In this document: positions 131 through 56,390 of the stretch, piece by piece
Layout of the letters: the number at the start of each line of letters is the position of its first letter
How positions within the stretch are numbered: position 1 is the stretch's first letter
DNA from: a virus
Taxonomy: Duplodnaviria; Caudoviricetes
Direction: 5' to 3' (one strand)
Virus record (IMG/VR): IMGVR_UViG_3300047388_000152
Span: 1-56,483 of that record
DNA length: 56,483 nucleotides
Made by a program: the position numbers and the translations under genes
Notes under the pieces: model-generated
What the model saw: the letters and a program-made list of their open reading frames with translations, nothing else
Told to the model about the DNA's origin: nothing
The model's database searches: none

Positions 131-156
131 GGTCAATCACTGACATTGTGACAGCG
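131..156 (+). repeat. Bipartite motif copy 1 (GGTCAATCA-CTGACA-TTG-TGACAG-CG)
   Basis: Matches the consensus RGTCAAGYA-CTGHCA-N3-TGWCAG found 9 times; lies just upstream of ATG 162. Confidence 0.8.
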
Positions 157-161
157 AAATT

Positions 162-353
162 ATGGCACACAAAGTAAGAGACGAGATTGTAAGGCTCCGC
201 AAGTTGCTAGACGAAACGGAGGACCCACTGACCATTTCTGCATTACAAGGGGCTATCTATGCCCTGAAGTGGCAAGAATCGCTAGGCGGTGCGGCTAAGG
301 AACCTATCCTTGCTCCGTCCAAAGAAATCGCAAAAACAACAAAAACAAGTTGA
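162..353 (+). CDS. Hypothetical protein
   Basis: 63-aa ORF, co-oriented with the left arm. Confidence 0.6.
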   Translation: MAHKVRDEIVRLRKLLDETEDPLTISALQGAIYALKWQESLGGAAKEPILAPSKEIAKTTKTS

Positions 354-378
354 CCTTTCTATTCTATCCGAATAGACT
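350..378 (+). promoter_or_regulatory. Sigma70-like promoter TTGACC-17-TAGACT
   Basis: Canonical spacing; ends ~6 nt before the RNA stem. Confidence 0.7.
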
Positions 379-384
379 TGTAGG

Positions 385-515
385 TGATTAGGTCAGCATA
401 CAGATTGAAAAGTTTTTCCGCGAAATCGCTCACACAGAGCGTAGAGACCGAGACTGGACTACTGTGTGTCTGACCTAATCATTCAGACCTAAAGCCGTTC
501 GGTCTCTTTTCTTTT
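385..515 (+). ncRNA. Putative structured RNA, copy 1 of 3
   Basis: 385-403 pairs with 462-481; inner hairpin CGCTC/GAGCG; AGAGACCGAGAC (443-454) pairs with GTTCGGTCTCT (497-507), followed by a T-tract. Confidence 0.75.
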
Positions 516-550
516 CCGACCGCCCAAAGTCTGACCGTTCTTCTATAGGT

Positions 551-733
551 ATGAGTCCGGCAAAATCAATCCTATGGCGTGTAACAGGGATTAACTTGTT
601 CACCCACCCTCAGACGCTGAAGTATCTCAGCGGTTACTTGTTTAGATGTCAGGCCATCTTTAATGACACGACAAGGAGCGTTCTCCACAGGGAGTTTCAC
701 CGTGCAATCGCTAAAACTCGAATATGGCCTTAG
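551..733 (+). CDS. Hypothetical protein
   Basis: 60-aa ORF downstream of the RNA element. Confidence 0.4.
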   Translation: MSPAKSILWRVTGINLFTHPQTLKYLSGYLFRCQAIFNDTTRSVLHREFHRAIAKTRIWP

Positions 734-781
734 GGGTGACCGTGCAATGCTGATAAACTCACGGGGTACAGGAGGAATATT

Positions 782-1342
782 ATGTACGCAGACCCTGAGC
801 GTCAGAAAGCGTTTAGACGGGAGTATTTCCAAACCAAGACTAAACAATTAAGAGCAGACCGCAAGGCACAAGGCATATGCCGTTGTGGACGTGGAGAATG
901 TCTGCCTAGTCGTGCTTATTGCTTACAATGTAAGGCGTATGAACCAGTCATACGCAAGCGTAAAATAGCACGACGAAGAGAGATGGGACTGTGTCTTCGA
1001 TGCGGAAGCCGACCTCAAGAGAAGGATGTCACTTGTGACCGATGTAAGGTCAAAGACCGACTGAAACGTACCGCAGAACGACGACAAGTCTTAGACCATT
1101 ACGGCACAATGTGTGCTTGCTGTGGGGAAAAACAGGCACAGTTCCTGTGCATCGACCACGTCAATAATGATGGCAATGTACACCGAAAAACGTTGCAAAC
1201 AAACAACATTTATCGGTGGCTCCTACGCAATGACTTTCCAGTGGGATTCCAAGTGCTGTGCTTTAACTGCAATATGGCTAAAGCCATTTATGGCAAATGT
1301 CCACATCAAGCGGCACCATCACCACCCGGAACACGGTCATAA
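782..1342 (+). CDS. HNH-type endonuclease with Cys-rich zinc-finger repeats
   Basis: CACCGE...LCIDHVNNDG...QVLCFNCNMAK..CPH; SD GGAGG upstream. Confidence 0.85.
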   Translation: MYADPERQKAFRREYFQTKTKQLRADRKAQGICRCGRGECLPSRAYCLQCKAYEPVIRKRKIARRREMGLCLRCGSRPQEKDVTCDRCKVKDRLKRTAERRQVLDHYGTMCACCGEKQAQFLCIDHVNNDGNVHRKTLQTNNIYRWLLRNDFPVGFQVLCFNCNMAKAIYGKCPHQAAPSPPGTRS

Positions 1343-1540
1343 TTGCCAAGTTAGTTAAAAACGTTCTGTAAATCGGTAAGGTGAAAGGTCAGAGCAGTCA
1401 CCCGTCAACAAGTTCAGTAAATTCTGTAAGGGAACCTAAAGGGTACATCAAGCCCACACAGGCCGGAGCTATAGGAGAGCAAAGGCAATGGGTGGTTGTG
1501 TTCTAAATTCAGTAGTAACTAAGGAGAAGAATCTAAGGAT

Positions 1541-2656
1541 ATGGGAAAAGTACAAAATATCTATGGGTCAGTAACGCGGTCTGAGGCGATGAAAACTATC
1601 ATCGCTCTAAGCAAGGGCGATGAATGGGGTTCGCCCCTTACGGTTTTAGTTACGGGGCCAATGGGTTCATCAAAGAGTGCGATGTTCCATGACTTGCAAC
1701 GTGCTTTGCCCACACACGATGGGTACTTTCACGATTGCACAACAAACGAAGCTGGTGACCTCCTGATGCCGTCTGTCACAGACAAAGACGCTGAGGTGCC
1801 TAAACTCCGCTTCGCTCCAGCAGAGACGCTAGGATTCACTAACAAGCGTCCTGTATTCATCTTTGCGGACGAACTGGACAAGGCTCCTAAAGCCATTCAG
1901 AACGTCTTTAACCGCATTGCTCACGAAGGGGCTTTGGGCAACTATGTATTGCCTCCGGGTTCGTTTATGGTGGCTACGTCCAACAGAACTGAGGAAGGTC
2001 TGGGGGATAATCGGCAGGCTAACATGCGTGACCGCACGGTGAGCATCGACATTAAGATGCCTGACTCTAAGGAGTGGATAGAGAACTACGCTCTAGGAGC
2101 TAACGTGCATCCTACCGTGCTAACTACGGTCTCAGAGATACCGGATATGCTGGCAGACTTTAGGGACGTAACAAAGGCGGCAGACAATCCCTACATCCAT
2201 CATCCGTCCGAGAATCGAGAACACGGCACAAGCTGTCGGTCGCTGGCTAACGCTTCTAAGGCTCTGTATCGTCTCGAAAAGGACGGACTCTCGGCAAGCG
2301 TCATAGCACACGTTCTTACAGGCATAATCGGTGCACCAGCGGCGGCAGAGATGATTTCAATTCACACTCTGCACAATGAGCTCCCTCGATATGACGAAGT
2401 TATCAAGAGTCCTGAAAAGGCTAAGATTCCTTCAAAGTCAGCGGCTATGTGCCTGTTCGTCTATACAGCTATACAGAGGGCAGAGCCTAAAGATGTAGCT
2501 TCACTAATGAAGTACGTGCAGCGTCTACCGTTGGAGCAACAGGCGATGTTTTTCTTTGGTGTTATCCGCAGTCCTAAAGCGGCACAGCTTACGCCTGAGA
2601 ATGGAATGATAGATTGGGGACGCACAAACTCGTGGCTTACCCGCAATGATAGTTAG
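1541..2656 (+). CDS. MoxR-like AAA+ ATPase
   Basis: Walker A-like GPMGSSKS, Walker B FIFADE, ATSNR sensor; paired with a downstream VWA gene. Confidence 0.85.
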   Translation: MGKVQNIYGSVTRSEAMKTIIALSKGDEWGSPLTVLVTGPMGSSKSAMFHDLQRALPTHDGYFHDCTTNEAGDLLMPSVTDKDAEVPKLRFAPAETLGFTNKRPVFIFADELDKAPKAIQNVFNRIAHEGALGNYVLPPGSFMVATSNRTEEGLGDNRQANMRDRTVSIDIKMPDSKEWIENYALGANVHPTVLTTVSEIPDMLADFRDVTKAADNPYIHHPSENREHGTSCRSLANASKALYRLEKDGLSASVIAHVLTGIIGAPAAAEMISIHTLHNELPRYDEVIKSPEKAKIPSKSAAMCLFVYTAIQRAEPKDVASLMKYVQRLPLEQQAMFFFGVIRSPKAAQLTPENGMIDWGRTNSWLTRNDS

Positions 2657-3381
2657 AGTCCTATTCCCATCTCATCGAACCACTTCGGAGTTTCGCCTTT
2701 CACTTCAAAGCGTGTCTGAAACTTAATCGACTTGCGGTAGTTATCGCCCGGAGGGAGATATTGGAGATTGTTCGGAACGTGCAAGCCTGAAACCATCTTG
2801 CCGTGCAAGGGGATGATGTGGTCAACCGTCATCCCCTCTGGGCAATCTCGATAGGTTTGGCGTATCTTTGTGAGGTCTGACCAAGGGGGAATACGTTGTT
2901 TCTTCGCGGCTTCACGCTTGCGTTGAATGTGCAGATTGTAGGCTTTGGTATTCGCCTCTCCGTGAATCGTGTGGCAATTTCGCTGTACTTCACGAGCCAA
3001 GCATCCACAGGAACGTGTCGCAACTTTACCAGTGAGATTGCCGCGTACCACGTAGACAGTGTTGCCGCAGTCACACAAGCACTCCCATTCAGTGCCTTGT
3101 CCGTGGCCATTTACCTGTCCGCGTAGTTTGTGAATCTTAATGGCAATCAGACGGCCAAATCGCTTGCCACCTAAATCGTTTTTGAGCAACGTGGTAGCAA
3201 TCATCTCTTTGGTCTTACATCCACAAGAACGAGAACGTCCATCCGCTATGCAAATAGCAGTCACGTGACGTTCAGTCCCACACTTACAGCGACATAGGGC
3301 TTTATGCTTATTAGATATGGGCGTTTCCAATACAGTCCAGTCGCCAAAAGTCTGCCCTTGCTGTATAACGGGATATTTCAT
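2653..3381 (-). CDS. HNH homing endonuclease
   Basis: CxCxCG...SCGC repeats; VDHIIPL..VSGLHVPNNLQ; antisense to the operon, with its own TGnTATAAT -10 near 3402-3410. Confidence 0.9.
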   Translation of the reverse strand: MKYPVIQQGQTFGDWTVLETPISNKHKALCRCKCGTERHVTAICIADGRSRSCGCKTKEMIATTLLKNDLGGKRFGRLIAIKIHKLRGQVNGHGQGTEWECLCDCGNTVYVVRGNLTGKVATRSCGCLAREVQRNCHTIHGEANTKAYNLHIQRKREAAKKQRIPPWSDLTKIRQTYRDCPEGMTVDHIIPLHGKMVSGLHVPNNLQYLPPGDNYRKSIKFQTRFEVKGETPKWFDEMGIGL

Positions 3382-3431
3382 TAACGCACCAACTAACGGT
3401 TATTATAACATTGAGAGAGTCTTTACAGGAA

Positions 3432-3470
3432 GGCAAAAATCAGAGATGGTTGGTGGCCTCAGACAACTAA
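3432..3470 (+). pseudogene. Orphaned alternative 3' end of the MoxR gene (GKNQRWLVASDN*)
   Basis: Aligns without gaps to the MoxR C-terminus GRTNSWLTRNDS*, with the stop at the same position. Confidence 0.6.
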
Positions 3471-3505
3471 TTTGTAAAGGCTCCCACTTTTACTTTGGAG
3501 AATCT

Positions 3506-3748
3506 ATGAGTGCAAGAGGCGACATTATGCGGCTTATAGGTCGCAAGACTGACCCGGTTAGCATAATCACAACCACCACTTACAAGTACACGGCCTCAAA
3601 CAAGAAAGATATAAAGACCCTCAATGAGGGGAATATACCGCGTGATTTAGGTGTGGCGATACACGTTCTAAGGCTGAACGGGCACACCGTCACAAAGGAG
3701 CGTTGGGACTACGAAGGTGGATTTTCTTTTGATGTAGTGGAGAAATAA
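3506..3748 (+). CDS. Hypothetical protein
   Basis: SD GGAG before ATG 3506; abuts the next gene. Confidence 0.6.
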   Translation: MSARGDIMRLIGRKTDPVSIITTTTYKYTASNKKDIKTLNEGNIPRDLGVAIHVLRLNGHTVTKERWDYEGGFSFDVVEK

Positions 3749-4060
3749 ATGGCAAAAGCAATAACCAAATACAAGGGTTTCAGCTACGAGGACGAATCAC
3801 GGCCTTTGGCAAAGGTGGCTTATATGGACGGATATGCTTTCGGTGACACGTTGTTGGAGGGCGTTCCGTTCAAGTGTGAAGTCACTGACAGTGGTGAATT
3901 GCAAGTCGGATTTGCAGAGCCTACGGGCTTCTACGAACAGGAGCTTAACCAGCCTTTATGGAATGCAAGGGCTTTGAAATACGCGAAGGAAGAGGACGTT
4001 TTCTATGAAAACGCAGAACTGACGGCAGGGGAAGATTTGTACTTAGAAAAGGCAGACTAA
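3749..4060 (+). CDS. Hypothetical protein
   Basis: 103-aa ORF, tightly packed, SD GGAG. Confidence 0.7.
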   Translation: MAKAITKYKGFSYEDESRPLAKVAYMDGYAFGDTLLEGVPFKCEVTDSGELQVGFAEPTGFYEQELNQPLWNARALKYAKEEDVFYENAELTAGEDLYLEKAD

Positions 4061-4064
4061 AGAT

Positions 4065-5339
4065 ATGGCAAAAGCAGTACAGCAAAAACTAACCGCAGAA
4101 CAAAGAGTCACCAAAGCACTGGTTTGGATACTCAGGTCGCCCAACTTCCTAAGTATGTACCCCACGGCCTGTATCGGGGAGACTCGCGTAATCCACGATG
4201 AAAAGGCGTGGCCGTCACCGATGAAAACCGGATACACGGACGGTCGCAATATCCGGTTTTGGCACGAGTTTGTTGATAACTCATCAGACGAGACTTTACG
4301 AGCGGCAATCCTTCACGAAACAGGTCACATTCTCGCACGTCACATACTGAATTATCAGCACCTGTGGCATCAGAATGCACAGCTTGCCAACATCGCGGCA
4401 GACCATTGGGTGAACAATATGCTCAAGGCTCACAACGACACGGGCATAGCCATTGGTGCGGATTGGTTCTGTGACCCTAAGTACGCCGACAGTTCCAAGT
4501 GGGACGTTACAAAGATTTTCAAAGACCTTCAAAAGAACGGCAAAGGACAAGGCAAGTGCAACGGTAACTGCCAACAGGGTAAAGGCTCAGGACGGCCTAA
4601 CGGCCAATGTACCTGCCCACAAGGGTTCGATGAACACGGCTGGGAAGATGGAAATTCCCTAAGTCCTGAGGAACAAAAGCAACTGGCACAGGACGTAGAC
4701 CAAGCTATTAGGCAAGGACAAAGACTCGCGGGGCAGATGAATGGCAACAAGGATTTAGCCATAAATGAACTACTAAAGGTACGGACAGATTACAAGGAAG
4801 CATTCCGAGAGTGGATGCGTACCTACACTCGTGGTGGAGATGACTTGTCGTGGGCTAGAGTCTCACGAAGGGCTATAGCGAACGGTGAACTAATGCCCGG
4901 AAGTATCTCTGAAGCTATGGGTGAACTGGCAATTTGCATAGACACTTCGGGCAGTATCTCGCAAGCAGAGCTAACGGTGTTTCTGTCTAACGTGGCTCTC
5001 ATCACTCAGACCATTAAGCCTCTAAAGATTCGGCTAATTTACTGGGACACGGTTTGCCACGGTATAGAAACCTATGAGCCGCACCAATATGACACAATAG
5101 CTCAGAGCACTAAGGCTAAGGGTGGTGGTGGTACACAGGTAGAATGCGTACCGCCTTACCTAGAGGCTCAGGGCATCAAGCCAGAGGTGATACTGGTTCT
5201 GTCAGACGGTTATTTGTTCTCACCACCACCGGATTTTCCTGCTCCTACGCTGTGGGCGATTCTTCCGGGCAATGAGGGCTTTACTGCACCCCTACCACAA
5301 AAAACAATTCACTTGCCGGATGGGTGGAGTGAGGATTGA
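4065..5339 (+). CDS. HExxH metallopeptidase-like plus VWA domain protein (DUF2201-like)
   Basis: TDG...LHETGH, NIAAD, MIDAS IDTSGS, GGGGT, LSDG. Confidence 0.9.
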   Translation: MAKAVQQKLTAEQRVTKALVWILRSPNFLSMYPTACIGETRVIHDEKAWPSPMKTGYTDGRNIRFWHEFVDNSSDETLRAAILHETGHILARHILNYQHLWHQNAQLANIAADHWVNNMLKAHNDTGIAIGADWFCDPKYADSSKWDVTKIFKDLQKNGKGQGKCNGNCQQGKGSGRPNGQCTCPQGFDEHGWEDGNSLSPEEQKQLAQDVDQAIRQGQRLAGQMNGNKDLAINELLKVRTDYKEAFREWMRTYTRGGDDLSWARVSRRAIANGELMPGSISEAMGELAICIDTSGSISQAELTVFLSNVALITQTIKPLKIRLIYWDTVCHGIETYEPHQYDTIAQSTKAKGGGGTQVECVPPYLEAQGIKPEVILVLSDGYLFSPPPDFPAPTLWAILPGNEGFTAPLPQKTIHLPDGWSED

Positions 5340-5345
5340 TGATGG

Positions 5346-5615
5346 ATGATGACTGACTACCTAAAGGGGCAGAGGAAGTGGCTGCGTAAGACTGGAGTCA
5401 CAGTAGGAAGTCCCGTGATGGTGATTGCAGAGCCTACGGGAACAATCGAGGATGAATCGTGGGGGTTGCCACTGGAGTATGTAGGGAAGGCGACGACTGT
5501 CAAACAGATAGACTCTGACCGTATCCGTATCAATCATCCTACGAGTGAGAGTCCCCTAGTTTGGTGGGGGGCTCCTTTCTACTGTCTAGTACCTGTAGAG
5601 GGGTCAAGATACTGA
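5346..5615 (+). CDS. Small protein, paralogue family A (SH3-like?)
   Basis: YLKGQxKW...YVGK...PFYCL, shared with 6237 and 6563. Confidence 0.75.
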   Translation: MMTDYLKGQRKWLRKTGVTVGSPVMVIAEPTGTIEDESWGLPLEYVGKATTVKQIDSDRIRINHPTSESPLVWWGAPFYCLVPVEGSRY

Positions 5616-5628
5616 CAAGATGTCAGCG
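5602..5628 (+). repeat. Bipartite motif copy 2 (1-nt insertion)
   Basis: GGTCAAGATA-CTGACA-AGA-TGTCAG-CG. Confidence 0.8.
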
Positions 5629-5633
5629 AAACC

Positions 5634-5930
5634 GTGAAAAACATACAGTCTGGATGGTGTAAGGGTGATGCTCTAGTCGCACGTGCTCAAGGTTGGGAAT
5701 TACGGGTAGACCACGAAGGACGCCTTTGGGCTGATGACGTATCCAGAGGCATTAGATTTAATGGAAAGGCATTCCAAACCGTCCTAGAGACTGCAATGAC
5801 AGGGGATGCAGCAGCCTACAAAGCTTTGCGTTGGCTGGCAAAGAACAATCCGTCCTACAGGAAGTGGAAAAAGACTGTACGGGCTATCTATAAGCAATTC
5901 CATCGTGTCAAAAGCACAGAAAGGACATAA
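5634..5930 (+). CDS. Small protein, paralogue family B
   Basis: SxWC...AMTG...KAL..LA...Y..W..TV..Y, shared with 5935. Confidence 0.7.
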   Translation: MKNIQSGWCKGDALVARAQGWELRVDHEGRLWADDVSRGIRFNGKAFQTVLETAMTGDAAAYKALRWLAKNNPSYRKWKKTVRAIYKQFHRVKSTERT

Positions 5931-5934
5931 TTTG

Positions 5935-6240
5935 ATGGCTACACGACACTTCAGGTCTAAATGGTGTTCCCTTGGTGCGTTCTTGTGTCGAGACCCTTCA
6001 CATTGGAAGTGGGAGGAAGTACGAGATAGAAACGGGAACGTGACGCCGTTAGTGTGGGATTGGCAAGAACATTGTGTGGCTCTAGCCCATCGGCAGACAA
6101 TGGATTCGTTGGTCGACCAGGCTATGACGGGCAATGTTCAGTACCTAAAGGCTCTGGGCGTACTAGCTTGGCAAAGAGAGGACTATAAAGAGTGGAGGCC
6201 GACAGTTTTGAGCCTCTATAGGTCGGTGATGGAGAAATGA
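5935..6240 (+). CDS. Small protein, paralogue family B
   Basis: Same motif as 5634; start placed at ATG 5935. Confidence 0.7.
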   Translation: MATRHFRSKWCSLGAFLCRDPSHWKWEEVRDRNGNVTPLVWDWQEHCVALAHRQTMDSLVDQAMTGNVQYLKALGVLAWQREDYKEWRPTVLSLYRSVMEK

Positions 6241-6560
6241 AAGACGACTACGTAAAACAGCAATCTAAGTGGTTGGAAAATACCGGATTGCAGGTTGGTG
6301 ATAAGTGCATTGTCGCGTTTTCACCGTCTTCTTTTGAGGAAGGCGAGAATTGGCACGGGTGGACGTGTGGGTGGGCTGAAGAGATGAACGATTGCGTAGG
6401 GAAGGTGGGGGTGATTCAAGCTATCGGGACGGCATACTATCACGCTGAGACGCCATTAAAGAACGGCATAGGGCTTGTGGTTCCGGGTGATGGACATCCT
6501 CAAGACGCTAAGGCGTGGTTCTATCCTTTCTTTTGTTTAATTCCTGCTGGAGATGAATAA
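6237..6560 (+). CDS. Small protein, paralogue family A
   Basis: YVKQQSKW...CVGKVG...PFFCL. Confidence 0.75.
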   Translation: MKDDYVKQQSKWLENTGLQVGDKCIVAFSPSSFEEGENWHGWTCGWAEEMNDCVGKVGVIQAIGTAYYHAETPLKNGIGLVVPGDGHPQDAKAWFYPFFCLIPAGDE

Positions 6561-6562
6561 CT

Positions 6563-6838
6563 ATGACAAACGAAGACAAGGCAACGAAACTTTATCTTAA
6601 GGGCCAGACCAAGTGGTGCAAGAACGCCAACATTGAGGTTGGAACAAAGGTCACCATCTTACAGGCCGCTGAATCGAATCAAGCAGGATGGCCGTCTCCC
6701 TTTCCTGAGTTTATGTTAAATTACGTGGGTAAAACAGGCACAGTGGTATGGCCAGATGACGTTGGTGGGGTGATGGTGGAGATGGAGGACGGGATTACTG
6801 TCCACTTTCCCTTCTTTATTTTATGCAAGGCTGAGTGA
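6563..6838 (+). CDS. Small protein, paralogue family A
   Basis: YLKGQTKW...YVGKTG...PFFIL. Confidence 0.75.
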   Translation: MTNEDKATKLYLKGQTKWCKNANIEVGTKVTILQAAESNQAGWPSPFPEFMLNYVGKTGTVVWPDDVGGVMVEMEDGITVHFPFFILCKAE

Positions 6839-7053
6839 TGCTCAAACGCAGTCCTGACAATCTCTACGTCCTCTGGTCTCGCTACCTTAAAGGACAGAGC
6901 AAGCTATGGAGTCCAACAAGAAAGCGTATGGCTAAAGGATTGCCGTTGAATACGGTGGTAGGGCAAAGACTCCATTTCCGTAAACATAACCGTATCGACA
7001 CTTGGGCGTTGCGGATTTGTCCATATGGCACAGACCCTAATCAAGCAAAGTAA
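6835..7053 (+). CDS. Small protein, family C (RSPx[GN]xY...LNxxV)
   Basis: KRSPDNLYVLW...PLNTVV. Confidence 0.65.
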   Translation: MMLKRSPDNLYVLWSRYLKGQSKLWSPTRKRMAKGLPLNTVVGQRLHFRKHNRIDTWALRICPYGTDPNQAK

Positions 7054-7779
7054 TCAGATTGTAATGTCGCGGTACGTTTTATAATGACGAATGTCAAACA
7101 AGGTAGAAAGCGACACTTTGAAATGTTGTGCTAATTCTCGATACGTTAAATGCGAGTGCCGTATATGCCAGACATCTTCTTTAGTTAATACACGGTACTG
7201 GGGACGATGTTCATGAATGCGACTGGCAATATGTTCTTTGGAGTGTTTTGAACCGCGATTTGCTTCTGCCGCCGCAAGAATCGCCGCAGTCGGGATGTGG
7301 CCCAGTCTGGCAATTCGTGACTTCTCGACCACGGCAGGATGCTGTTTTCTACCAGTTAAGGCTTTACGTATTTTCTCAATGGCCTGCGGGGTCAGTTTAC
7401 GCCCCTTTCTCGCTCTAGACATTTTTTGTCGAGTGAGCATGGTGGGCTTCCACCCTAAACAGCCCTCTCCTCCTAAGGTGGCATTCGTAAGCGGTGCTCC
7501 AATAGAACGGTAATACGCAATCCAATTCGGCTCCGCGTCGATATAACCGCGAGCGTCACAACCGCTCTCTAAAATTACCATCAGCGGACGATGTCCCGTT
7601 CGGAGTAAACCCTGAATCCAATGCGCTTTATAGCTACGAACTCTCAAGGCTCCATTACAATGATCGTTTAACCGCTTATAAGGATTACCACTCCATCCGA
7701 TATACCGCACCCGCTTGGTCATCGGGTCAAGTAACGCATAGATATGCCATTTATATTGCATATCTCTAGTATAACTCAT
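7054..7779 (-). CDS. GIY-YIG homing endonuclease with NUMOD3-like repeats and C-terminal HTH
   Basis: HIYAL..RYIG..RL..H, E..WI, LTN.T.GGEG. Confidence 0.85.
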   Translation of the reverse strand: MSYTRDMQYKWHIYALLDPMTKRVRYIGWSGNPYKRLNDHCNGALRVRSYKAHWIQGLLRTGHRPLMVILESGCDARGYIDAEPNWIAYYRSIGAPLTNATLGGEGCLGWKPTMLTRQKMSRARKGRKLTPQAIEKIRKALTGRKQHPAVVEKSRIARLGHIPTAAILAAAEANRGSKHSKEHIASRIHEHRPQYRVLTKEDVWHIRHSHLTYRELAQHFKVSLSTLFDIRHYKTYRDITI

Positions 7780-7792
7780 ATAAAAACCCTTT

Positions 7793-7861
7793 ATCTGTCC
7801 TAAAAATGATGACCCAAATAAAGAAGACTATCTGAGTGGAAAACGAAAAATCAGGGATTGA
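7793..7861 (+). pseudogene. Orphaned alternative 3' end of ORF 6835-7053 (ICPKNDDPNKEDYLSGKRKIRD*)
   Basis: Aligns to ICPYGTDPNQAK* at 7015-7053. Confidence 0.7.
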
Positions 7862-8048
7862 CGTATTGTACTCACCGAACGGCAAATATGTCGGGTGGTT
7901 TCTGGATAAACACTATGTCTTTACGCCTTGGAAGCCGTCTGTGACACAAGGTTTGGGCCTTACGCTCAACGAAGCCGTTCAGTGGGCATTGAGAATGCGG
8001 GAGAGCGGGTATAAAGTACGAATCTTACCCGCAAATAAAAAACTTTAG
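7836..8048 (+). CDS. Small protein, family C
   Basis: YSPNGKYVGW...LTLNEAV. Confidence 0.7.
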   Translation: MENEKSGIDVLYSPNGKYVGWFLDKHYVFTPWKPSVTQGLGLTLNEAVQWALRMRESGYKVRILPANKKL

Positions 8049-8050
8049 AC

Positions 8051-8079
8051 TTGACATCCGTAGAGACTTTTTCCAAACT
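8051..8079 (+). promoter_or_regulatory. Promoter-like TTGACA-17-CAAACT
   Basis: Same position relative to the RNA as in copies 1 and 3; weak -10. Confidence 0.55.
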
Positions 8080-8084
8080 GTTAG

Positions 8085-8594: not shown

Positions 8595-8595
8595 G

Positions 8596-8621
8596 GGTCA
8601 AGCACTGACATCGTGACAGTG
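8596..8621 (+). repeat. Bipartite motif copy 3
   Basis: GGTCAAGCA-CTGACA-TCG-TGACAG-TG. Confidence 0.85.
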
Positions 8622-8625
8622 AATT

Positions 8626-15125: not shown

Positions 15126-15127
15126 TT

Positions 15128-15433: not shown

Positions 15434-15459
15434 AGTCAAGCACTGCCATCGTGTCAGCG
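15434..15459 (+). repeat. Bipartite motif copy 4
   Basis: AGTCAAGCA-CTGCCA-TCG-TGTCAG-CG directly before ATG 15460 of a 42-aa ORF. Confidence 0.8.
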
Positions 15460-15597
15460 ATGCTCAATACTGCCGTTGAACGTCTCTTAGAACGCGACAT
15501 CGACCTTCCTTTACGCCAAAAGGTGATGAAGGTTCTGATAGAGGTGCGAGAGTTTGAGTCGCCGTCCATTAGTCTTGGGAAGAGATAGAGGAGAGGA

Positions 15598-25221: not shown

Positions 25222-25567
25222 GAAGCGTTTCGGAGACGCAGGCTGGTTGGACAGTCCAGATGAACAGTGCTGGCTTGATTCACAAGCATTCCAAGACTTT
25301 CGGCTCAAGGTCGCTGACATCTTGTCAGTACTTGACCGTTGGCCGGATGGTCGTGTAAAAGGTTGGTCTGTACCCGAGTTATTGAGAGCCTTGGGCGACG
25401 ATGCCAACCCACGGTGGATTTACAATGCACTCAAGAATATCGACAACCTTGTGGAAGATGTCTCTGGCTCTCTGATTCGCTATAGAATCTTAGATAGGCC
25501 AGTAAAGGACATCTACGGTAATCCCAACAACTTTAGGATTAGGAAAGATGAAAAACAAAAGGTTTGA
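25208..25567 (+). CDS. Hypothetical protein
   Basis: 119-aa ORF; contains motif copy 5. Confidence 0.6.
   Translation: MEKPKKRFGDAGWLDSPDEQCWLDSQAFQDFRLKVADILSVLDRWPDGRVKGWSVPELLRALGDDANPRWIYNALKNIDNLVEDVSGSLIRYRILDRPVKDIYGNPNNFRIRKDEKQKV
25312..25337 (-). repeat. Bipartite motif copy 5
   Basis: Reverse complement GGTCAAGTA-CTGACA-AGA-TGTCAG-CG, inside a + strand gene. Confidence 0.85.
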
Positions 25568-34200: not shown

Positions 34201-37200
34201 CTTCAGGCTTAATATCCTCAAAGGTCTTGTCCATCCCTGTGAATTTAGAATTATCTCTTACGTATTCATAGGCTGCTCTTAGATAGGGCTTAACTACATC
34301 CCCCATCTCGTCTACCATTCGTTTCGAGTAGTCAGCGAAAGTACGACTGCCCGCTTCCACATGGTAGGAAGCAACGCGGAGTAGGGCTTTGGCTAGTTCA
34401 GGGTCAACAGGCAATCCACTTGATGCTGTTCTTGTGGACTCTTTGAGTTTCTGGGAGACGACTGACTTAGCTTTATTGTATTCGTCAGTCGTTACCAGCT
34501 TGTTCTTACTTCCATAGGTTCGGGGCACCTTTTCGGAGGTAGTAGTAGCGGATTCTGAGGGTTTGCCTTCAGGTTTAGTATCAGACGATGCCCCGATTTC
34601 TTTCCATTGGTCATTGAGAGCCGTAGTCCCGTTATACCCCTCACCGGGACGTATCCTGACTCTCTGAGTACCGTTCGGCATAGTATCGACGTAGCCGACC
34701 CTTGCGCCGTCACTGACGGGTGTTTGACCCTTTGGAATCCAATCTGTGCCCTCTGGAGCTTGAGGAGTTGCAGGAGTCTCCTCTGCTACAGGCTTTTTAG
34801 CCGTTTCGATAGGTGCAAGGTCTCCCCCAAAATCAGGATAGCCGTTAGGACGGTCTTTCCTATCATCACGCATACGATAGCGACTACCATTTGCACGTTC
34901 GTATAGAGGTTCCTCTGCAGCGTTCTGCCCGACAGGTGTATCTTCAGCAGGGGTGACTGTTTCTCGTGGTGCTGTAAGTTCGCCCTTTTTAGCTATAGAT
35001 TTCTTGGGTTTCGCTGTCACGTTGGCAGTGCTTGACCCGTTTTTAGACAATGCTTTCTGAGTGTAGAGAGCATCGTTAGTGTCTTGAACTTCCTCTGGAG
35101 TCCTAGCTACTTCCTCACTAGACTTCTTTATCTCTGCCTCTTTCTCTGCCTTAGTTTTTCCTTGAAAATCAGATTCAGGGGTAACCGGAGGCTCGAACAC
35201 CCCACCTATGGTCTCTGGTGCCTGCTCACCATCACGGATAATCCCATTCTCATCTACATAGGACGGACTAGGTTTACCCTCTGTATCTGTAAACGGTACT
35301 TGGTTATTAAGACCTTCTTTTAGTTGGTTCTGTAGGTCTTGAATATGTTGAGGTAAATCTTTGTAAGTGGTCTCTGGTATCTCAACTTGAACCTGTGCAT
35401 TTGTCTTTGGGTCAACGGTCTTAACATCACCGTCCTTAGACATCTCCACTACTGCTGCATTCCCACGTTCGTCTTGAACACGAATAGGCGTGTCTACCAC
35501 ATCGTGCCCGCCGAGACTGGAAGCGTGAAGCAGTGTGAATAAGACAGCATTACTAAATGAGTCTTTATTACTATCCCCAAAGGCTTTTGACACAAGTCCT
35601 GACCCAACACCAACTGTGCCTAATTCAACGCCTTTAGAGAGAATCTTTCCAGTGTAAGGTTCGGCCAACTTACCAATTCCGGGGGCAACCTCACCAACCT
35701 TACCCAATGCGTACCCTTTCGCACCTTCTAATGCGACTTTAGACCAATCTACTTTGTTACCTTCTCCAGCCGCTTGTAGGGCAGAGTCAGACGCAAATTG
35801 TACCGCTGGCCCACCGGGGTATATGACCATTCGAGCAAAATCACCCGTCAACTGACCAGCGGTACGAGCGATAGTTGACCCCCAAGTATTCCGTTGGATA
35901 GGACGGCCTTCTAGGTATCCCTTATCCTCTGGTGTTGCGGTATCGGTGTATTTGCTCTGCGTAGCATCTGCAACCTGTCCGATATTCTGAGAGGCATCTT
36001 GCAGATACTTCACGAGACCGTCTGCGGGACGAGTGCCCTCTGTAAGCCCCGGAATGTGCATTAGGGGATTGGCTTCCTGCTCTATTTGAAGTATTCCCGC
36101 CAACGCTTTAGCAGTAGTGCCACCTGAGCCTAGCAATCCACCAATAGCAGCCGCTGTAGGGTCTTTTGCTAAATCAGGGACACCAGAGTAGGGACTGTCT
36201 ATCGCGGATTTGATGTCATCAGCCGTATCCTGTGCAAAGTTACGTCCCACTTGTAGATTAGGCTGTGGATTCTCCACTCTCTCTCGGTTTATTTTGTCTT
36301 GGAGCATCGGATTAACGTCTACTCCACCTCTAGCTAAGTCTCCGTAACTAACATCAATATTCTGTCCGGGCTTGAAATCGGTGACTAAGTGAAAATCACC
36401 CGTATGAATACCGGGATACTTAGCCTGTAACTGGCCCGCAAGGTATTTTTCAGCATCTGCTTTATTTCTCACAGATGACGGAAGCGAAATAGTGTCGGAT
36501 ACGGCAGTCTTGAAACTATCCCAATCTCTAGCATTTACCTCTTGCGTGGGACGTTGTGGAATAGGTTGAAGGTTCTTGTCTAAGAGATTACCGTTCTCGT
36601 CGTAGTTCTCGTCTCCAACTTTTACATCAGTCTTCTCTCCGTGCTTTGGAACAGTACCTTGAGGTGCTGACATTGTGGCAGTACTTGACCGCGTAGGCAC
36701 AGCCGCTATTTGTCCAACGGGAGTGACATTCGGAACAGTAGTAGGCAGAGACTGTCTAAACGTGTTTTGAGTCTGAATATTGTCTTCAAGCTGATTGTCT
36801 TTTAGATACTGTTGATACCTGTCAGCTAGTATCTTTTGGTCAACATTTACAGGAGATTGAGACGGGTCAAAGTTCACAGGAGCCGTATCTTGTATCTCTT
36901 GAGGCATCGTTCCTTGGGGAACATCCTGAGCCACAGGAGCCGTGGGTTGTGCCTGAGCGTTAGGGTCTGGAGCTAACGCTTGTCCCGGGGGTGGTTTCAA
37001 GACGCCATCCACGTCTTTCTGTGCAAACGAAAAATCAGGAGGAACAATCTTATCCACATCTGCTTGAGCAAAAGAATAATCAGGAGTAGATGTCTGACCC
37101 TTTTTGGTGCGATTGAGAACACCTTGTGTATATTCCCTAAAACTTGGTTCATCGGGCTTAAAACGGGTAGGGTTATCATACTGTTCCATCCGTCCTTCAC

Positions 37201-47831: not shown

Positions 47832-48533
47832 TTAATGCACGAATTGTTTACGGAACGCCTTGAGGTTATTTTCAAGGTGCACACCCATCGGACTTATCAT
47901 TGTGCCGTCTTTTGGACACTCCACGGGTTCAATAGCTCTGAGGCACTTATCACACAGTGAAATGTTGCCTGAATCCTCATCGTCTGGGACTTCTTCCCAA
48001 GGCAAGCCTCTCTCTTTCAGCATCTCTTGCACTTCTTCTCTTGAGAGGTCGTGGAGAGGTGCTAGGAAGGTGGCTTCCCCAACTTTCCATTCTTTCTTTG
48101 GGGCTACAGTCTCTATAGTCCAATGTTTATCGGCCTTTCGAGAACCAACCAAGTAGAGGTCAAAGTTTATTGGACTCTCGTGCATCCTGTAGCCGTCTAG
48201 CTCTGCGATACACTTATCCCCCTCGATTACATCTCTCAGTAAAGGGATTGCCGCACCGCCTACTGCGTACTCATACACAGCCGTAATTTCCTTGGCGTCT
48301 CCTACGAAAGATAATCGTGATGGTGGATATGAGAGCACTGTTAAATCCCACTCTTTCACTAAGGCATCAAACCTTTCTTTCTGCTTACGACCCCAAGTTT
48401 CCCTACCCACTGTCACAATGTCAGTACTTGACCCGTTTTCTTTCAGTAACGCTAGAAGTAACGTTGAATCTAATCCTCCGCTGAAGAGAATCACGGGGCG
48501 TTCAAAGTCATCAATGTGGGATAGGTCTATCAT
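47832..48533 (-). CDS. PAPS-reductase-like PP-loop protein
   Basis: LFSGGLDS, GSRKAD, PLHDLS..V, C-terminal CDKC..CP. Confidence 0.75.
   Translation of the reverse strand: MIDLSHIDDFERPVILFSGGLDSTLLLALLKENGSSTDIVTVGRETWGRKQKERFDALVKEWDLTVLSYPPSRLSFVGDAKEITAVYEYAVGGAAIPLLRDVIEGDKCIAELDGYRMHESPINFDLYLVGSRKADKHWTIETVAPKKEWKVGEATFLAPLHDLSREEVQEMLKERGLPWEEVPDDEDSGNISLCDKCLRAIEPVECPKDGTMISPMGVHLENNLKAFRKQFVH
48408..48433 (-). repeat. Bipartite motif copy 8
   Basis: Reverse complement GGTCAAGTA-CTGACA-TTG-TGACAG-TG, encoding GSSTDIVTV. Confidence 0.85.
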
Positions 48534-51943: not shown

Positions 51944-52527
51944 TATTCATTCCAATCCGCATCTAATAGCTTCAAGTCGCCTCTGATGCCTAATGCAAGC
52001 ACGTAGCACAGGTCATCAAGGGTCGCAGTCGAAGGAAACGTTATGGGGTCAGACATAGTAGCCCCAAATGTAGGGAATGTAGGTACTGACACTGTGACAG
52101 TTCCAGAATAAGTGTCCAACGTAGGCGATGGCGCACGGTAGTTCAATGTATCCATCCCCGTTAGCCATACATACCCTAGTTGTCCGAATGTCTGTCCACC
52201 AGTCACGTCTATAGGGAAGTCCATATACGTGATGAGGTCTCCGTCACTATTACTGATGTTAGCTTGCCCTAGGAACTCCCGCATTACATTGTCGGGCAGA
52301 GTGCCTGTACCCGTAGTGATGGTGATAGCGTTGTCTACGGCAATATCCTGACGGAATTTGATATCTTCTGCTTTCTCTCTATAGAGATAGCGAATGGCAG
52401 AATTTAACATCGCACGAAGCCCTCCTTTAACATCAATCTCGACAGACTGATTAGGGTCAACGCCAATGGCCGTCGCCATTGTTCGCGCTCGTGCAATGAT
52501 ACTTTCACCCGTGGAAGTTACAGCCAT
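51943..52527 (-). CDS. Head-tail adaptor-like protein
   Basis: Size, position, N-terminal helix pattern. Confidence 0.5.
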   Translation of the reverse strand: MAVTSTGESIIARARTMATAIGVDPNQSVEIDVKGGLRAMLNSAIRYLYREKAEDIKFRQDIAVDNAITITTGTGTLPDNVMREFLGQANISNSDGDLITYMDFPIDVTGGQTFGQLGYVWLTGMDTLNYRAPSPTLDTYSGTVTVSVPTFPTFGATMSDPITFPSTATLDDLCYVLALGIRGDLKLLDADWNE

Positions 52528-53520: not shown

Positions 53521-53543
53521 TGTTAAATAGCTGAACGGGATGG

Positions 53544-53750
53544 CTATTTACCTCCAATCATCAGATAGCCACCCATCTTTTTCTTCTTGGATTGTGGCGG
53601 TTTCACGGCAGGACGTTTCGGGGCACTCTCTGGAAGTTTTAACCCTTTAGATGCCTTGCCCCACTCGTCTACATCCCATCCTTGAGCTTCAAGTTTGGGT
53701 TTATTCGCATACGCGAACTTCATTTGCCGCTTGCTAACGAAAGGCATCAC
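53544..53750 (-). CDS. Small basic protein (MPFVSKRQ...)
   Basis: Common phage small-protein motif. Confidence 0.7.
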   Translation of the reverse strand: MMPFVSKRQMKFAYANKPKLEAQGWDVDEWGKASKGLKLPESAPKRPAVKPPQSKKKKMGGYLMIGGK

Positions 53751-53986
53751 ATCTTCCCCCTTTCAGCCATTTTGTAGGTTTTCTTTTTCTTACCGCCAAT
53801 GCCCATAGATTTAGCCTTAGCGTGTATCTTTTCTGCCGTTGCAGGACTCGCGTAACGTATGTAGCTCAAAGCCGCTTTGACCCGCTTGGCATCATTTAGA
53901 GGAAAGCTCCCACTTCCGGGTGCTTTCGCAGGGTCAGCAAAGTCGCTTTTAGGTAGATTCTTACGCTGTTGAGTCGTCAGTTTCAT
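53747..53986 (-). CDS. DUF6582-like small protein
   Basis: LTT.QR..LP.SDFA.P....FPL.D..RVKAAL. Confidence 0.7.
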   Translation of the reverse strand: MKLTTQQRKNLPKSDFADPAKAPGSGSFPLNDAKRVKAALSYIRYASPATAEKIHAKAKSMGIGGKKKKTYKMAERGKM

Positions 53987-54129
53987 TTCTGTAGTACCAA
54001 CTTCTGAACCTGCTTCATTATGTCGTCCGGTTTTTGAGGTTTCATCCACCCTGATAGCTGTTTGAAGTCAGGCGTAGCCGCTTTGTACGGTTTGTCCTTT
54101 CTAACACGACTAAAGGCTGGAGTTTTCAT
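53983..54129 (-). CDS. Small basic protein (48 aa)
   Basis: Coupled by TAATG and ATGA overlaps. Confidence 0.5.
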   Translation of the reverse strand: MKTPAFSRVRKDKPYKAATPDFKQLSGWMKPQKPDDIMKQVQKLVLQK

Positions 54130-54527
54130 TAGTTAGAAAATGAAGCTCTTTGCTGTGCCCAAGCGTTAGTAATTGTCTGACCGCCCGAATTGGTGATACG
54201 CAGAAATCCGTCGAGTTCTATCATATCTGCCGTTGACCAAGTGTAGACCTTCTGACTCCCTACCGCCGCAACGGTATCCAAGGCGAATTCAGTGCTAAAG
54301 TCGGGATTCACGTCATACATCACGGAGAATGCGGTTCCTGCTGGGGCGGTGCCATACAGCACATTCAGACTGGTAGTGATACCGGCGTTTAGAGAGATGC
54401 CCACGGAACTACTTGAGTCTGGAATGGTGTACTCAGCATTGTGCATTGACGCCCAGACGGGTTCTTGGGTGTTTGAACTCGCACGTGCTAGTGGAAGCCC
54501 TTTTGAAGGATATAATCCCGTTGCCAT
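54129..54527 (-). CDS. Virion structural protein
   Basis: Beta-rich; SD AGGAG. Confidence 0.65.
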   Translation of the reverse strand: MATGLYPSKGLPLARASSNTQEPVWASMHNAEYTIPDSSSSVGISLNAGITTSLNVLYGTAPAGTAFSVMYDVNPDFSTEFALDTVAAVGSQKVYTWSTADMIELDGFLRITNSGGQTITNAWAQQRASFSN

Positions 54528-54540
54528 AATGTTCTCCTAT

Positions 54541-55287
54541 CTACGCGTATTCGTTCCAGTCCGCTATCGAAGTAATGCGAGGTCTATTAATCCCCTTGAT
54601 ATATTCCTTGAAAATTGATTCCTTGCGGTCTAATTGATACGCAAAGGCTTGTGCCAACTCTTTACGCTTGTTCTGATTCATCGCTTCTTCCTCGTACCAC
54701 TTGGCATATGGTAGAAGGGCTGTAGCCGCTCTGAGTCTTACGAGTTCCGCGTGTTCCGGCAGTTGTATACCGGATTCCAGCGGGTCGTCTGTCCCTAAAT
54801 ACCCCGGAAGATATGTGAGATTGTAGGTAGCACTCTCTTGGGGCACTGGATTAATCTTCACCGTGGGCTGAGCATTTAACACTCCCGCACGGTAGAAACT
54901 CATCCTCTCTGGGGCGACCTGAAGCACAAAGGCTTGAGCATAGTTGCTGTTGCCGATGTACGACCATACGGTGCCGTAGAGTTGGTCTGAGACATCCTGA
55001 AACGCTACCTGAATTTCAGGAATATATGGGTTCAGGGTATTCTTCGTCACGAACAGAATCTTTCCGAAGTTGTCTACGTTGATTAGATATTCATTGGTAT
55101 TCGGCGTGAAGTTTAACTGATAGGTCGCTAGACCCCACGCTATACCTGTATTGTTCAACGCGTTCACCACGTCTCTCTCCTCGCTGATTTCCTGTCTCAG
55201 TAATTGGTGAAAAGACGGGGCGTCAGGAAAAGGATTGCCTAAAAGGTCTCGGCATCGGAAAAGTTGTTCTGTACGCGTTATGCCCAT
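54541..55287 (-). CDS. Head-tail adaptor-like protein
   Basis: ...INPVP..SATY.L.Y...LPEHAELV pattern. Confidence 0.6.
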   Translation of the reverse strand: MGITRTEQLFRCRDLLGNPFPDAPSFHQLLRQEISEERDVVNALNNTGIAWGLATYQLNFTPNTNEYLINVDNFGKILFVTKNTLNPYIPEIQVAFQDVSDQLYGTVWSYIGNSNYAQAFVLQVAPERMSFYRAGVLNAQPTVKINPVPQESATYNLTYLPGYLGTDDPLESGIQLPEHAELVRLRAATALLPYAKWYEEEAMNQNKRKELAQAFAYQLDRKESIFKEYIKGINRPRITSIADWNEYA

Positions 55288-56390
55288 TAGAACGGGTTAC
55301 TTCCTTCTTCGTCCGGTAAAGGCCCGTTGTGCTGGAAGCAAGCACTCTCTCCGGGTTTCAATTCACGTTGACATTCACCCTTTGCAGTCTTTGCTCCGCA
55401 AAGTCTTACTTCCGGCTCAGACTCTTGAGATGCGAGTGTTTCAGACTCAACTGACTTTGTGACAGTGCTTGACTCGGCCTGTTTGATTTGTAGTTCCAAG
55501 GCTAGTCTTTCATTCTCCAACCTCAATTTCTCCAGTTCAAACGCCTGCGTACTAGCACCAGACTGAGCTTGACGGTCTGCCCTCATCTCTCTCACGAGTT
55601 CTGCGGTAGAGTTAGCCTCACCAGCGAGAAGTTCGCCTTTACGCTTGTACTCTATCTGTGGCAGTAGATGCTCTGAGATAGGACTGTGGGGTGCCGTTAC
55701 GCCGTTTTTTGCAGCGTCTTGCTTTACGATGTCGTCTTTCTCGACAATCTCAAGGGCACTCATACGGAATATGGTGCAGGATTGGAGCATATCCGCTCCA
55801 ATCGACTGATACTGAGCACGTTTGCCGTCTGTCCAAGGCTGATTAGCAATGTCTGCTATCCTCTCTCGGATACTCGCCTCTAGTTCCCTAATAGTTGGAG
55901 GGAGACTGTCGGCACCTACACGAATCTCATTCCAGTTTGGAAAGAAAAAGTTCTGTGCTTCGTCTATCTCTGATGCTGATGCACCTTTAAGAGCCTGTAT
56001 CTCAATAACTCCACCAACCCCGTGTGGTTGTGAGCGTTCGATGATACGGCGAATCTCATCCCCCGGCAGTGTTTCGGCATATCTCGTGTCTGTATGTCTC
56101 TCCTGCTTGAACACTCCTTCACGAATAGATGCCGCATTAGAACCTAGGAATCCTGACACAGTGGATTGCTGAGATTTGCCATCTCCACCAACGGACTCAC
56201 TGATAAACGCTTGCGGATAGTGCTTACGTTCTCCGGGTGGGAGCATTACTTCCCACTCAGGTTTCATCGACGGCTGCATAGAAGTGAACTGACAACGATG
56301 TATCATCCCCTTTGAACCGTGATTATCACCATTCTTGGGAAGAGTTCTCATCTGTGGCAGATAGATGCCCTCACCCTTTACATTGGGCAT
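55287..56390 (-). CDS. Hypothetical protein with coiled coil and C-terminal Cys/His motif
   Basis: CGAKTAKGEC...CFQH. Confidence 0.7.
   Translation of the reverse strand: MPNVKGEGIYLPQMRTLPKNGDNHGSKGMIHRCQFTSMQPSMKPEWEVMLPPGERKHYPQAFISESVGGDGKSQQSTVSGFLGSNAASIREGVFKQERHTDTRYAETLPGDEIRRIIERSQPHGVGGVIEIQALKGASASEIDEAQNFFFPNWNEIRVGADSLPPTIRELEASIRERIADIANQPWTDGKRAQYQSIGADMLQSCTIFRMSALEIVEKDDIVKQDAAKNGVTAPHSPISEHLLPQIEYKRKGELLAGEANSTAELVREMRADRQAQSGASTQAFELEKLRLENERLALELQIKQAESSTVTKSVESETLASQESEPEVRLCGAKTAKGECQRELKPGESACFQHNGPLPDEEGSNPF
55450..55474 (-). repeat. Bipartite motif copy 9
   Basis: Reverse complement AGTCAAGCA-CTGTCA-CAA-AGTCAG-T, encoding ESSTVTKSV. Confidence 0.75.

Follow-up and report, generated by a model that had tools for sequence, protein, structure and literature searches.

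The DNA analysed here, called the window, is the whole of the IMG/VR virus record IMGVR_UViG_3300047388_000152, a single 56,483-bp contig of an uncultivated phage (Duplodnaviria; Caudoviricetes). The element in question is an asymmetric motif of about 29 bp that occurs along it in nine copies. The coding strand is + up to ~27.7 kb and – from ~27.9 kb (the early and the late arm, respectively). Sixty open reading frames (ORFs) of the window were compared with PHROGs and 46 with Pfam, every ORF of at least 360 aa being included. Based on these scans, the window carries genes for a replisome organiser (16760), a DnaB-like helicase (17647) and an endolysin (30712), and functions were also assigned to tail-fibre- and tail-spike-like proteins, a 2128-aa virion-type protein and two ParB/Srx-like proteins. 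An IS1595 element and many HNH or GIY-YIG genes complete this picture.

The nine copies, their build and their placement

A degenerate search with RGTCAAGYACTGHCANNNTGWCAG gave eight matches at 0–1 mismatch, at 131, 8596 and 15434 on the + strand and at 25314, 35014, 36667, 48410 and 55451 on the – strand; 100 shuffled sequences gave a mean of 0.01 matches and at most 1. The ninth copy, at 5602 (+), is genuine and carries a 1-nt insertion in its arm (GGTCAAG-A-TACTG). When scored with a position weight matrix (PWM) built from the nine copies, the eight gap-free copies reached 30.6–42.9 bits and the copy at 5602, taken ungapped, 16.4 bits, and the next best site in the window had 12.3 bits. The maxima of 100 simulated sequences had a mean of 8.0, a 95th percentile of 13.7 and a largest value of 22.0 bits. 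Given the gap in score between the nine copies and the background, there are no weak or randomly oriented extra copies. Both searches bear out the nine copies on two strands that a sequence-only reading of the window had listed, with – strand coordinates 1–2 nt too low, and, as that reading had expected, the PWM scan of the window turned up no additional copies in random orientation. It had also listed two copies of the core alone. At 52086..52100 the palindrome core (CTGACACTGTGACAG) is exact and the GGTCAAG arm is lacking, which leaves the orientation of this copy undefined (12.3 and 11.8 bits on the two strands); it is the next best site mentioned above. The core listed at 12582, with 2 mismatches, is no better than chance expectation. 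Exact palindrome cores number 9 in the window vs 0.07 in simulated sequence.

All four + strand copies lie in stop-to-start gaps. Copy 1 (131..159; GGTCAATCACTGACATTGTGACAG+CGAAA, 40.3 bits) is located between the stop codon TAG 128–130 and ATG 162. Copy 2 (5602..5631), in which the arm insertion is combined with a perfect palindrome, precedes GTG 5634. Copy 3 (8596..8623, 42.8 bits) directly follows the stop codon 8592–8594 and is followed by ATG 8626, and copy 4 (15434..15461, 39.7 bits) overlaps the stop codon of a small ORF (15337–15435) and is followed by ATG 15460. From the end of the 24-mer to the start codon there are 7, 7, 6 and 2 nt, respectively. The other five copies are on the – strand, and all of them lie within genes. 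Copy 5 (25310..25337, 41.3 bits), also a perfect palindrome, is antisense within the + strand gene 25208–25567, where it encodes ADILSVLDR; it is identical to copy 2 at all 27 shared positions, the extra base of copy 2 being the sole difference. Two copies fall into the gene of the 2128-aa protein: copy 6 (35010..35037, 42.9 bits) within a low-complexity linker rich in Lys, around residue 855, where it encodes SSTANVT, and copy 7 (36663..36690, 35.3 bits) at about residue 304, in a Pro/Thr-rich linker, where it encodes SSTATMS. Copy 8 (48406..48433, 38.4 bits) lies in a PP-loop ATPase-like gene (47832–48533) and encodes GSSTDIVTV. Copy 9 (55447..55474) is the weakest, with 30.6 bits and AGTCAG as its right half, and is found in the variable C-terminal region of the gene 55287–56390+, 164 nt upstream of the start of the next gene.

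Conservation spans position 1 to about position 28 (GGTCAAGYACTGHCANNRTGWCAG-CGAA) and ends there. The site is composed of two overlapping imperfect palindromes, GTCA-N5-TGAC (positions 2–14) and CTGNCA-N3-TGNCAG (positions 10–24), which are unequally conserved; CGA(A) comes after them. Conservation of the asymmetric arm GGTCAAG is as strong as that of the palindrome, six of its seven positions being invariant or nearly so. The fourth (central) pair of the second palindrome is mismatched in seven of the nine copies (A-A, C-U, C-A or U-U) and never covaries. Only the cores of the two perfect palindromes fold, at –5.0 kcal/mol, against 0 to –0.6 kcal/mol for the other seven, and the folding energies of the whole sites are those of shuffled sequence. 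An Rfam search of the window gave no matches. Because the central pair does not covary and two of nine cores fold, the motif reads as a protein site on duplex DNA and not as a selected hairpin, in agreement with the protein-loading sites that the sequence-only reading had proposed. A hairpin of the N4-promoter or RNA-operator type was rejected on the same grounds (two folding cores, energies equal to shuffles, no compensatory change). From its build, the motif appears to be a composite, asymmetric double-stranded DNA recognition site of ~29 bp, presumably bound by a protein.

Two other simple explanations of the motif's sequence were rejected. CTTGACY does not appear to serve as the –35 element of a sigma-70 promoter on the reverse strand, where no TAnnnT was seen at 16–18 nt (three copies, by eye) and there is no upstream conservation. 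The RTG at positions 18–20 (eight of nine copies) is not a start codon within the motif, being out of frame with the downstream genes in three of the four + copies.

The position of the + copies immediately before start codons, already noted from the sequence, was confirmed at distances of 2–7 nt. Since 6.4% of left-arm positions place the 24-mer outside coding sequence, four out of four has a probability of about 1.6e-5. The four + copies head gene blocks of 3–12 kb. A terminator-like hairpin (5549–5574; 10 pairs, 6 of them G-C, with a T-rich tail) is located upstream of copy 2 and ends 27 nt before it. The start codon after copy 3 opens a decayed frame: the HNH-AP2 endonuclease gene 8626–9379 is interrupted by TAA at its fourth codon and changes frame near 8855. 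The missing Shine-Dalgarno sequence after the + copies is uninformative, as a core of at least 4 nt was present in just 33 of 76 genes, and the evidence for leaderless mRNAs was not significant.

In the late arm, the four copies encode SSTANVT, SSTATMS, SSTDIVT and SSTVTKS. The shared SSTxxxS/T had been taken as a sign that the DNA motif constrains the protein. The encoding is correct, but the common frame is weakly informative (about 1 in 18), because it is the only one that is always free of stop codons; in the two remaining sense frames, 48% and 67% of the consensus variants contain no stop. Copies 5 and 8 were compared with homologues. In the PP-loop protein, copy 8 brings T where nine homologues carry I, A, V, V, V, V, F, F and I, without an indel. 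The position is F in four related loci, and the arm half of the motif replaces codons for a conserved hydrophobic residue. The other half, GACATYGTGAC (DIVT), is already present in the related locus L010, and the arm half is newly written. Similarly, ADILSVLDR of copy 5 aligns without gaps to TDIVTGKRK, ERLLSIPRK and TDILSVARF in homologues of the 25208 protein. These gap-free alignments rule out a mobile 27-nt insertion for copies 5 and 8. Judging from them, copies arose in place by amino-acid change and in a defined orientation, including copy 5, which opposes its gene. As the origin of these copies in genes was non-synonymous and in place, selection acts on the DNA.

The sites are polar. 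The four + copies (131–15434) and the five – copies (25314–55451) make two blocks that account for all nine, spanning 0.1–55.5 kb. Of the 512 possible orientation strings, 74 show such a clean two-block pattern (P = 0.145 for the pattern taken alone). Co-orientation with the coding strand is found in eight of the nine copies (P = 0.0195). That copy 5 opposes its own gene, as had been read from the sequence, was verified by codon scoring, in which the + frame 25208–25567 scored best of six and the – ORF was negative; the polarity is therefore not purely that of the local gene. The co-orientation of eight out of nine copies and the stop-to-start placement of four out of four favour a role linked to transcription. 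The sites had been read as arranged symmetrically about an origin. The flip interval (15.46–25.31 kb) includes the replisome organiser and DnaB genes, and a search of 15.4–20.1 kb for iterons and other origin signatures was negative. GC skew is positive from 13.7 kb to ~27.3–28 kb and switches only at the coding-strand flip, outside the interval, so it lends no independent support to a replication switch there.

Relatives and other content of the window

Metagenomic data contain 91 homologues of the 708-aa structural protein, not counting the protein itself, and GenBank phages gave no match either to this protein or to the window DNA. The two closest relatives, seen as proteins, are P0003 (77% identity, on a 55.5-kb contig) and P0002 (75%). 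Nine related loci (L003–L011) were compared, with protein identity of 52–64% for L004–L011 and 31% for L003. None of the nine contains the motif at up to 4 mismatches. Multi-copy repeats of at least 22 nt were absent from L004, L008 and L010, and none of the motif kind were found in the distant relative G001 (L012–L015); a search for 14-mer repeats had no power even on the window itself. It should be noted that the early arms of the relatives are not homologous to that of the window. A pattern scan of IMG/VR returned two contigs with a single copy each, and a looser pattern gave 106 matches; among the 80 of these that were listed, only L054 had two hits, which came from an unrelated repeat of ~45 nt. 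By a rough estimate, the IMG/VR matches are at chance level. The loci L001 and L002 showed no tblastx similarity to the window. Since the motif is absent from these nine related loci and the IMG/VR matches are at chance level, the motif is lineage-specific.

Some observations were made on these other genomes. The two hits in L054 (5169–5187 and 5631–5649) are copies of the ~45-nt repeat that share GTCAAGTACTGGCAA with the motif arm and have no palindrome, probably a coincidence. In G001, strong canonical sigma-70 promoters (TTGACA-N17-TAnnnT) were found at ~45.8–51 kb and 58–64.5 kb. Three of them share a longer repeat with GACAGCGA, the 8-mer that ends most motif copies of the window. Also in G001, several small genes in a row have ribosome-binding regions that are nearly the same (AACAGGAGGCAAYATG).

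The window is not a complete genome. The 5′ end of its last gene is cut by the right end (56391–56483), and the orthologues in three relatives begin 12–15 codons further out. Four conserved upstream genes, present in both longer relatives, have no counterpart in the window. One public run, a soil metagenome, contains the window and is probably the source of the contig; this run yielded a single contig, free of variants and loose ends, and the longest record given for it has 68,220 bases. Based on the longer orthologues of the last gene, the four absent upstream genes and the 68,220-base record, the genome is ~6–12 kb longer than the window, at least ~6 kb being missing. Comparison with the relatives (cut last gene, absent upstream genes) also rules out circular closure of the contig. 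Because the window is incomplete, nine copies are a lower bound, and a second polarity switch would lie in the unseen DNA.

Several further features of the window were recorded. An IS1595-family insertion (20672–22993) is bounded by 36-nt inverted repeats (78% complementary) with no clear target duplication; it contains a DDE_Tnp_IS1595 transposase gene (21974–22933, –) and a 361-aa passenger ORF (20722–21807) with a weak match to DUF3800. The DnaB-like helicase (17647–19971, 774 aa) includes a stretch of ~370 aa (residues ~190–560) that matches very long PHROG profiles annotated as terminase large subunits and looks like an intein or other inserted element. A 219-aa ORF (15598–16257) shows, by eye, class I aminoacyl-tRNA synthetase signatures (an HLGN-type motif and KMSKS); its only PHROG match is to an unknown family, and its sequence suggests that it may be a truncated TrpRS/TyrRS-like protein. 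At least eight genes are of the HNH, GIY-YIG, endonuclease VII or homing-endonuclease type. They are located at 782–1342, 2653–3381 (–), 7054–7779 (–), 8626–9379, 16461–16808, 20054–20572, 26009–26866 and 26960–27496. The PP-loop ATPase-like gene 47832–48533 lies within the structural arm, gave weak matches to QueC and PAPS-reductase and is present in all relatives examined. Its product may be a DNA- or protein-modifying enzyme. The sole good sense-strand sigma-70-like promoter, TTGACC-17-TAGACT at 350–378, is located just past the first small gene following copy 1. A tRNA search of the window gave no matches.

Candidate binding proteins and possible role of the sites

The best candidate for the protein that reads the sites, offered as a lead only, is the product of the gene that holds copy 5. 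This 119-aa protein (25208–25567, +) is one of a small family: a full HMMER search retrieved 13 other members, where a word search returned only the protein itself. The nearest Atlas neighbours of its model (predicted local distance difference test score 0.60) are winged-helix regulators (Fur, ArsR/HTH_5), with template-modelling scores of ~0.55, so that it may be a winged-helix protein; the family gave no significant sequence match in Pfam or the PDB. In addition, two adjacent small paralogues (14022–14276, 84 aa, and 14273–14545, 90 aa) share a W..I..W...GI pattern resembling a helix-turn-helix, one of them with a weak match to RecX_HTH3, and may be further DNA binders. No RNA polymerase, sigma factor, repressor, integrase, Tus, RTP or ParA was detected among the 60 ORFs scanned against PHROGs and the 46 scanned against Pfam.

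Based on the above results, we tentatively suggest that the sites are stoperator-like polar operators, or roadblocks, for transcription; this is possible rather than probable. We infer that they are bound by a protein, that this is a DNA-binding protein of the phage, and that RNA polymerase is the machine they control. In such a scheme, a sequence-specific phage-encoded protein would read the ~29-bp sites, and its oligomeric binding would fit the two overlapping imperfect palindromes. The bound sites would act as orientation-dependent control points of transcription, comparable to the operator and stoperator sites known from Cluster A mycobacteriophages. Within the early arm, where the sites fill the stop-to-start gap ahead of four gene blocks, initiation or read-through would be shut off. 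In the late arm and at 25.3 kb, the intragenic sites pointing with leftward transcription would be polar roadblocks, with copy 5 keeping late-arm read-through from continuing antisense into the early arm.

A number of observations weigh against this proposal. Nine sites were found here vs 20–30 in Cluster A phages, and the present site is ~29 bp long with dyad elements, while stoperators are 13–14 bp long, without symmetry, and bound by a monomer. Five of the nine sites are intragenic although gaps of 50–140 nt exist in the late arm, and the late-arm read-through that copy 5 would stop is an ad hoc requirement. With about 38 bits, a site carries far more information than a regulator would require in a genome of 56 kb. 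The scans revealed no repressor (of L5 type or other), integrase or sign of lysogeny, with the limit that many ORFs of the window are orphans and the genome is incomplete, and the homing-endonuclease-type genes, at least eight in number, suggest a virulent lifestyle. No sequence-level test identifies the binder, the 25208 family being without a Pfam or PDB match. Finally, at 48% G+C the host is probably not an actinobacterium, unlike the hosts of Cluster A phages.

The motif could instead be a phage-specific promoter, which we consider rather unlikely. Host RNA polymerase, redirected by a phage factor, would start at the G/A of CAGCGAAA, 2–3 nt past the motif; the first genes would be leaderless or nearly so, the late intragenic copies would be internal boosters, and copy 5 would be an antisense promoter. 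Such a start is consistent with the location of the + copies at the head of four 3–12 kb gene blocks with start codons 2–7 nt downstream, and with the terminator-like hairpin that ends 27 nt before copy 2. Positions 11–19 (TGnCAnnnT) hold four of the five specified bases of an extended –10 element, whereas the 11-nt spacing of the blocks fits no sigma-70, extracytoplasmic-function or sigma-54 geometry. Also in favour, sigma-70-like matches are not enriched (18 vs 22.2, 10 vs 22.4 and 17 vs 18.8 expected), and a strict search for TTGAC-N(17–19)-TAnnnT gave one sense-strand site (350), vs nine in G001, seven of them on one strand. T7-class promoters have a very high information content and all-or-none scores, and the present motif resembles them in this. 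However, neither an RNA polymerase nor a sigma factor was found in the scanned ORFs, which cover all ORFs of at least 360 aa, and the 2128-aa protein shows no polymerase signature in a simple motif search, Pfam or the PDB. Two of the copies are found within a gene of 6.4 kb, at depths of 0.9 and 2.6 kb. Conservation would also be expected of a core transcription system, and the relatives are without repeats of at least 22 nt.

Polar barriers to replication forks, comparable to the Ter sites that the sequence-only reading had named as well, are likewise unlikely in our view. Two opposed groups would pass forks one way only and thereby either trap termination or keep replication co-directional with transcription, and the terminator protein, perhaps RTP-like, could be the 25208 product. 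The arrangement of nine of nine copies in two opposed blocks is as expected for such barriers, but by itself it has a P of 0.145, and the stop-to-start placement of all four + copies would be left unexplained. The size and build of the site match known Ter sites (PMC10331603). The two overlapping imperfect palindromes, the presence of one copy in a small, possibly winged-helix gene, and the – orientation of copy 5, made by amino-acid changes within a + gene and apparently selected, all point the same way. Although the replisome-organiser and DnaB genes lie between the blocks, neither an origin nor iterons were found in 15.4–20.1 kb, and the GC-skew switch at ~27.3–28 kb is outside the flip interval. 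No Tus or RTP family was found among the 46 Pfam-scanned proteins, and the 25208 family has no significant Pfam or PDB match. Nine barriers in 56 kb would be lavish, and we know of no Ter system in a phage, no dedicated literature search having been made. That the nine sites and the 25208–25567 protein together form a phage polar barrier of the Tus-ter/RTP-Ter kind, letting forks (and RNA polymerase) pass one way, we regard as quite unlikely.

Strand-specific nick sites or other endonuclease sites, cut by a phage HNH or GIY-YIG enzyme and similar to the interruptions in T5, phiKMV-like and LUZ24-like genomes, seem improbable. Long, asymmetric, high-information, all-or-none sites are typical of homing-type endonucleases, and the present sites resemble such targets. 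There are at least eight endonuclease-type genes in the window, and both half-words of the phage tf nick site are contained in the motif, YACT at positions 8–11 and RTGWC at positions 18–22 (R in nine of nine), 6 nt apart. The nick consensus of phiKMV is ~20 nt long and lies in the non-coding strand (PMC3517423). However, the nick sites described in that source are all on one strand, even in tf with its convergent arms, whereas here four are on + and five on –, and the target of a selfish endonuclease would be expected to be lost, not created by amino-acid changes.

The sequence-only reading had proposed parS-like sites, that is, a centromere or loading sites for the ParB/Srx-like proteins encoded at 9723 or 13262, and the present data make this very improbable. 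The 13262 product matches a ParB-type PHROG at 2.4e-25 and the 9723 product at 1e-4 to 9e-4, and the Atlas neighbours of the latter are generic ParB/Sulfiredoxin-domain phage proteins. These matches are weak or remote: the 9723 product has no Pfam family at E ≤ 0.01, the 13262 product has GmrSD_N only (0.007), neither matched a Pfam ParB family or any ParB, Noc or KorB of solved structure, and the ORF scans detected no ParA-type ATPase. The centromere sites of the prophage-plasmid N15 are reportedly dispersed in its genome. Four separate inverted-repeat sites are described for it (PMC7205306) and offer a parallel; however, a centromere needs neither a strictly conserved asymmetric arm nor strand polarity. 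Equally hard to credit is an element acting in the mRNA, a hairpin or operator for processing or translational control of the next gene. Eight of nine copies are on the transcribed strand and the + copies abut start codons, but the folding results given above (two of nine cores, a central pair that never covaries, energies equal to shuffles) speak against it, as do the antisense position of copy 5, the lack of an Rfam match in the window and the intragenic copies without a nearby start codon.

Comparison with known systems

The promoters of T7-class single-subunit RNA polymerases are near-invariant words of ~23 bp with excess information, co-oriented with genes and sometimes located within upstream genes. 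The present case differs in that the window scans revealed no gene for a phage RNA polymerase. In phage TLS and T1-like phages, 21-nt repeats likewise form a transcription-directed motif upstream of start codons in a phage without an RNA polymerase or sigma gene, and their authors leave undecided whether they are stoperators or enhancers (PMC11447400). According to the same source, those repeats are ~76 nt upstream and 18 of 21 are intergenic, whereas here the distance is 2–7 nt and over half of the copies are in genes. The strand-specific interruptions of T5, phiKMV-like and LUZ24-like phages share with our sites a conserved strand-specific word at 4–14 places per genome, and the tf consensus, TACT/RTGMC, is found in the motif in halves (PMC3517423). 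Known nick sites all lie on one strand, and the tf word is 9 nt long and contiguous (PMC3517423); in the window the copies switch strand, and 6 nt separate the two half-words.

The stoperator-like sites that we tentatively favour have their best-documented counterpart in the Cluster A mycobacteriophages. As described for L5-type repressors, more than 20 asymmetric sites in promoters and short intergenic spaces are bound, the sites follow the direction of transcription, and reversal of a site abolishes repression (PMC9283540, PMC6550527). The phage studied here likewise has one asymmetric site genome-wide, located in short gaps in the case of the + copies, mostly oriented with transcription and flipping between the arms; in Cluster A the action of the site is orientation-dependent. 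The consensus of L5-type sites varies between heteroimmune relatives (PMC6550527), which fits the absence of the motif from relatives of 52–64% identity.

The Tus-ter system (E. coli, R1 and R6K) and the RTP-Ter system (B. subtilis) are similar in other respects. Their sites, 23–30 bp long (23 bp for E. coli ter) and asymmetric or bipartite, number about ten in two opposed groups; several ter sites are within ORFs, and the terminator gene is beside its own site, through which autoregulation of both tus and rtp takes place. Dimers of RTP occupy a pair of adjoining half-sites that are not equal (PMC10331603). The differences are that here no Tus or RTP homologue was detectable, neither an origin nor a terminus could be placed, and GC skew switches beyond the limits of the flip interval. 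If the barrier interpretation were true, a phage barrier system would fix the end of replication or make replication follow transcription in both arms; it would represent a novel type of control over phage replication and, to our knowledge, the first fork trap described in a virus, evolved independently of Tus and RTP.

The feature is real, strongly non-random and selected, and it belongs with the genome-wide polar protein sites of phages. Genome-wide strand-polarised protein sites are rare, and the L5 stoperators, Tus-ter and RTP-Ter have revealed orientation-dependent blocks to polymerases or helicases. If the 25208 protein binds the sites, the two would make up a compact new polar roadblock module. 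Compared with the known systems, the present one is distinctive in its long all-or-none site, which is written into coding sequence at the expense of conserved residues, and in a candidate binder whose own gene holds the sole “reversed” site.

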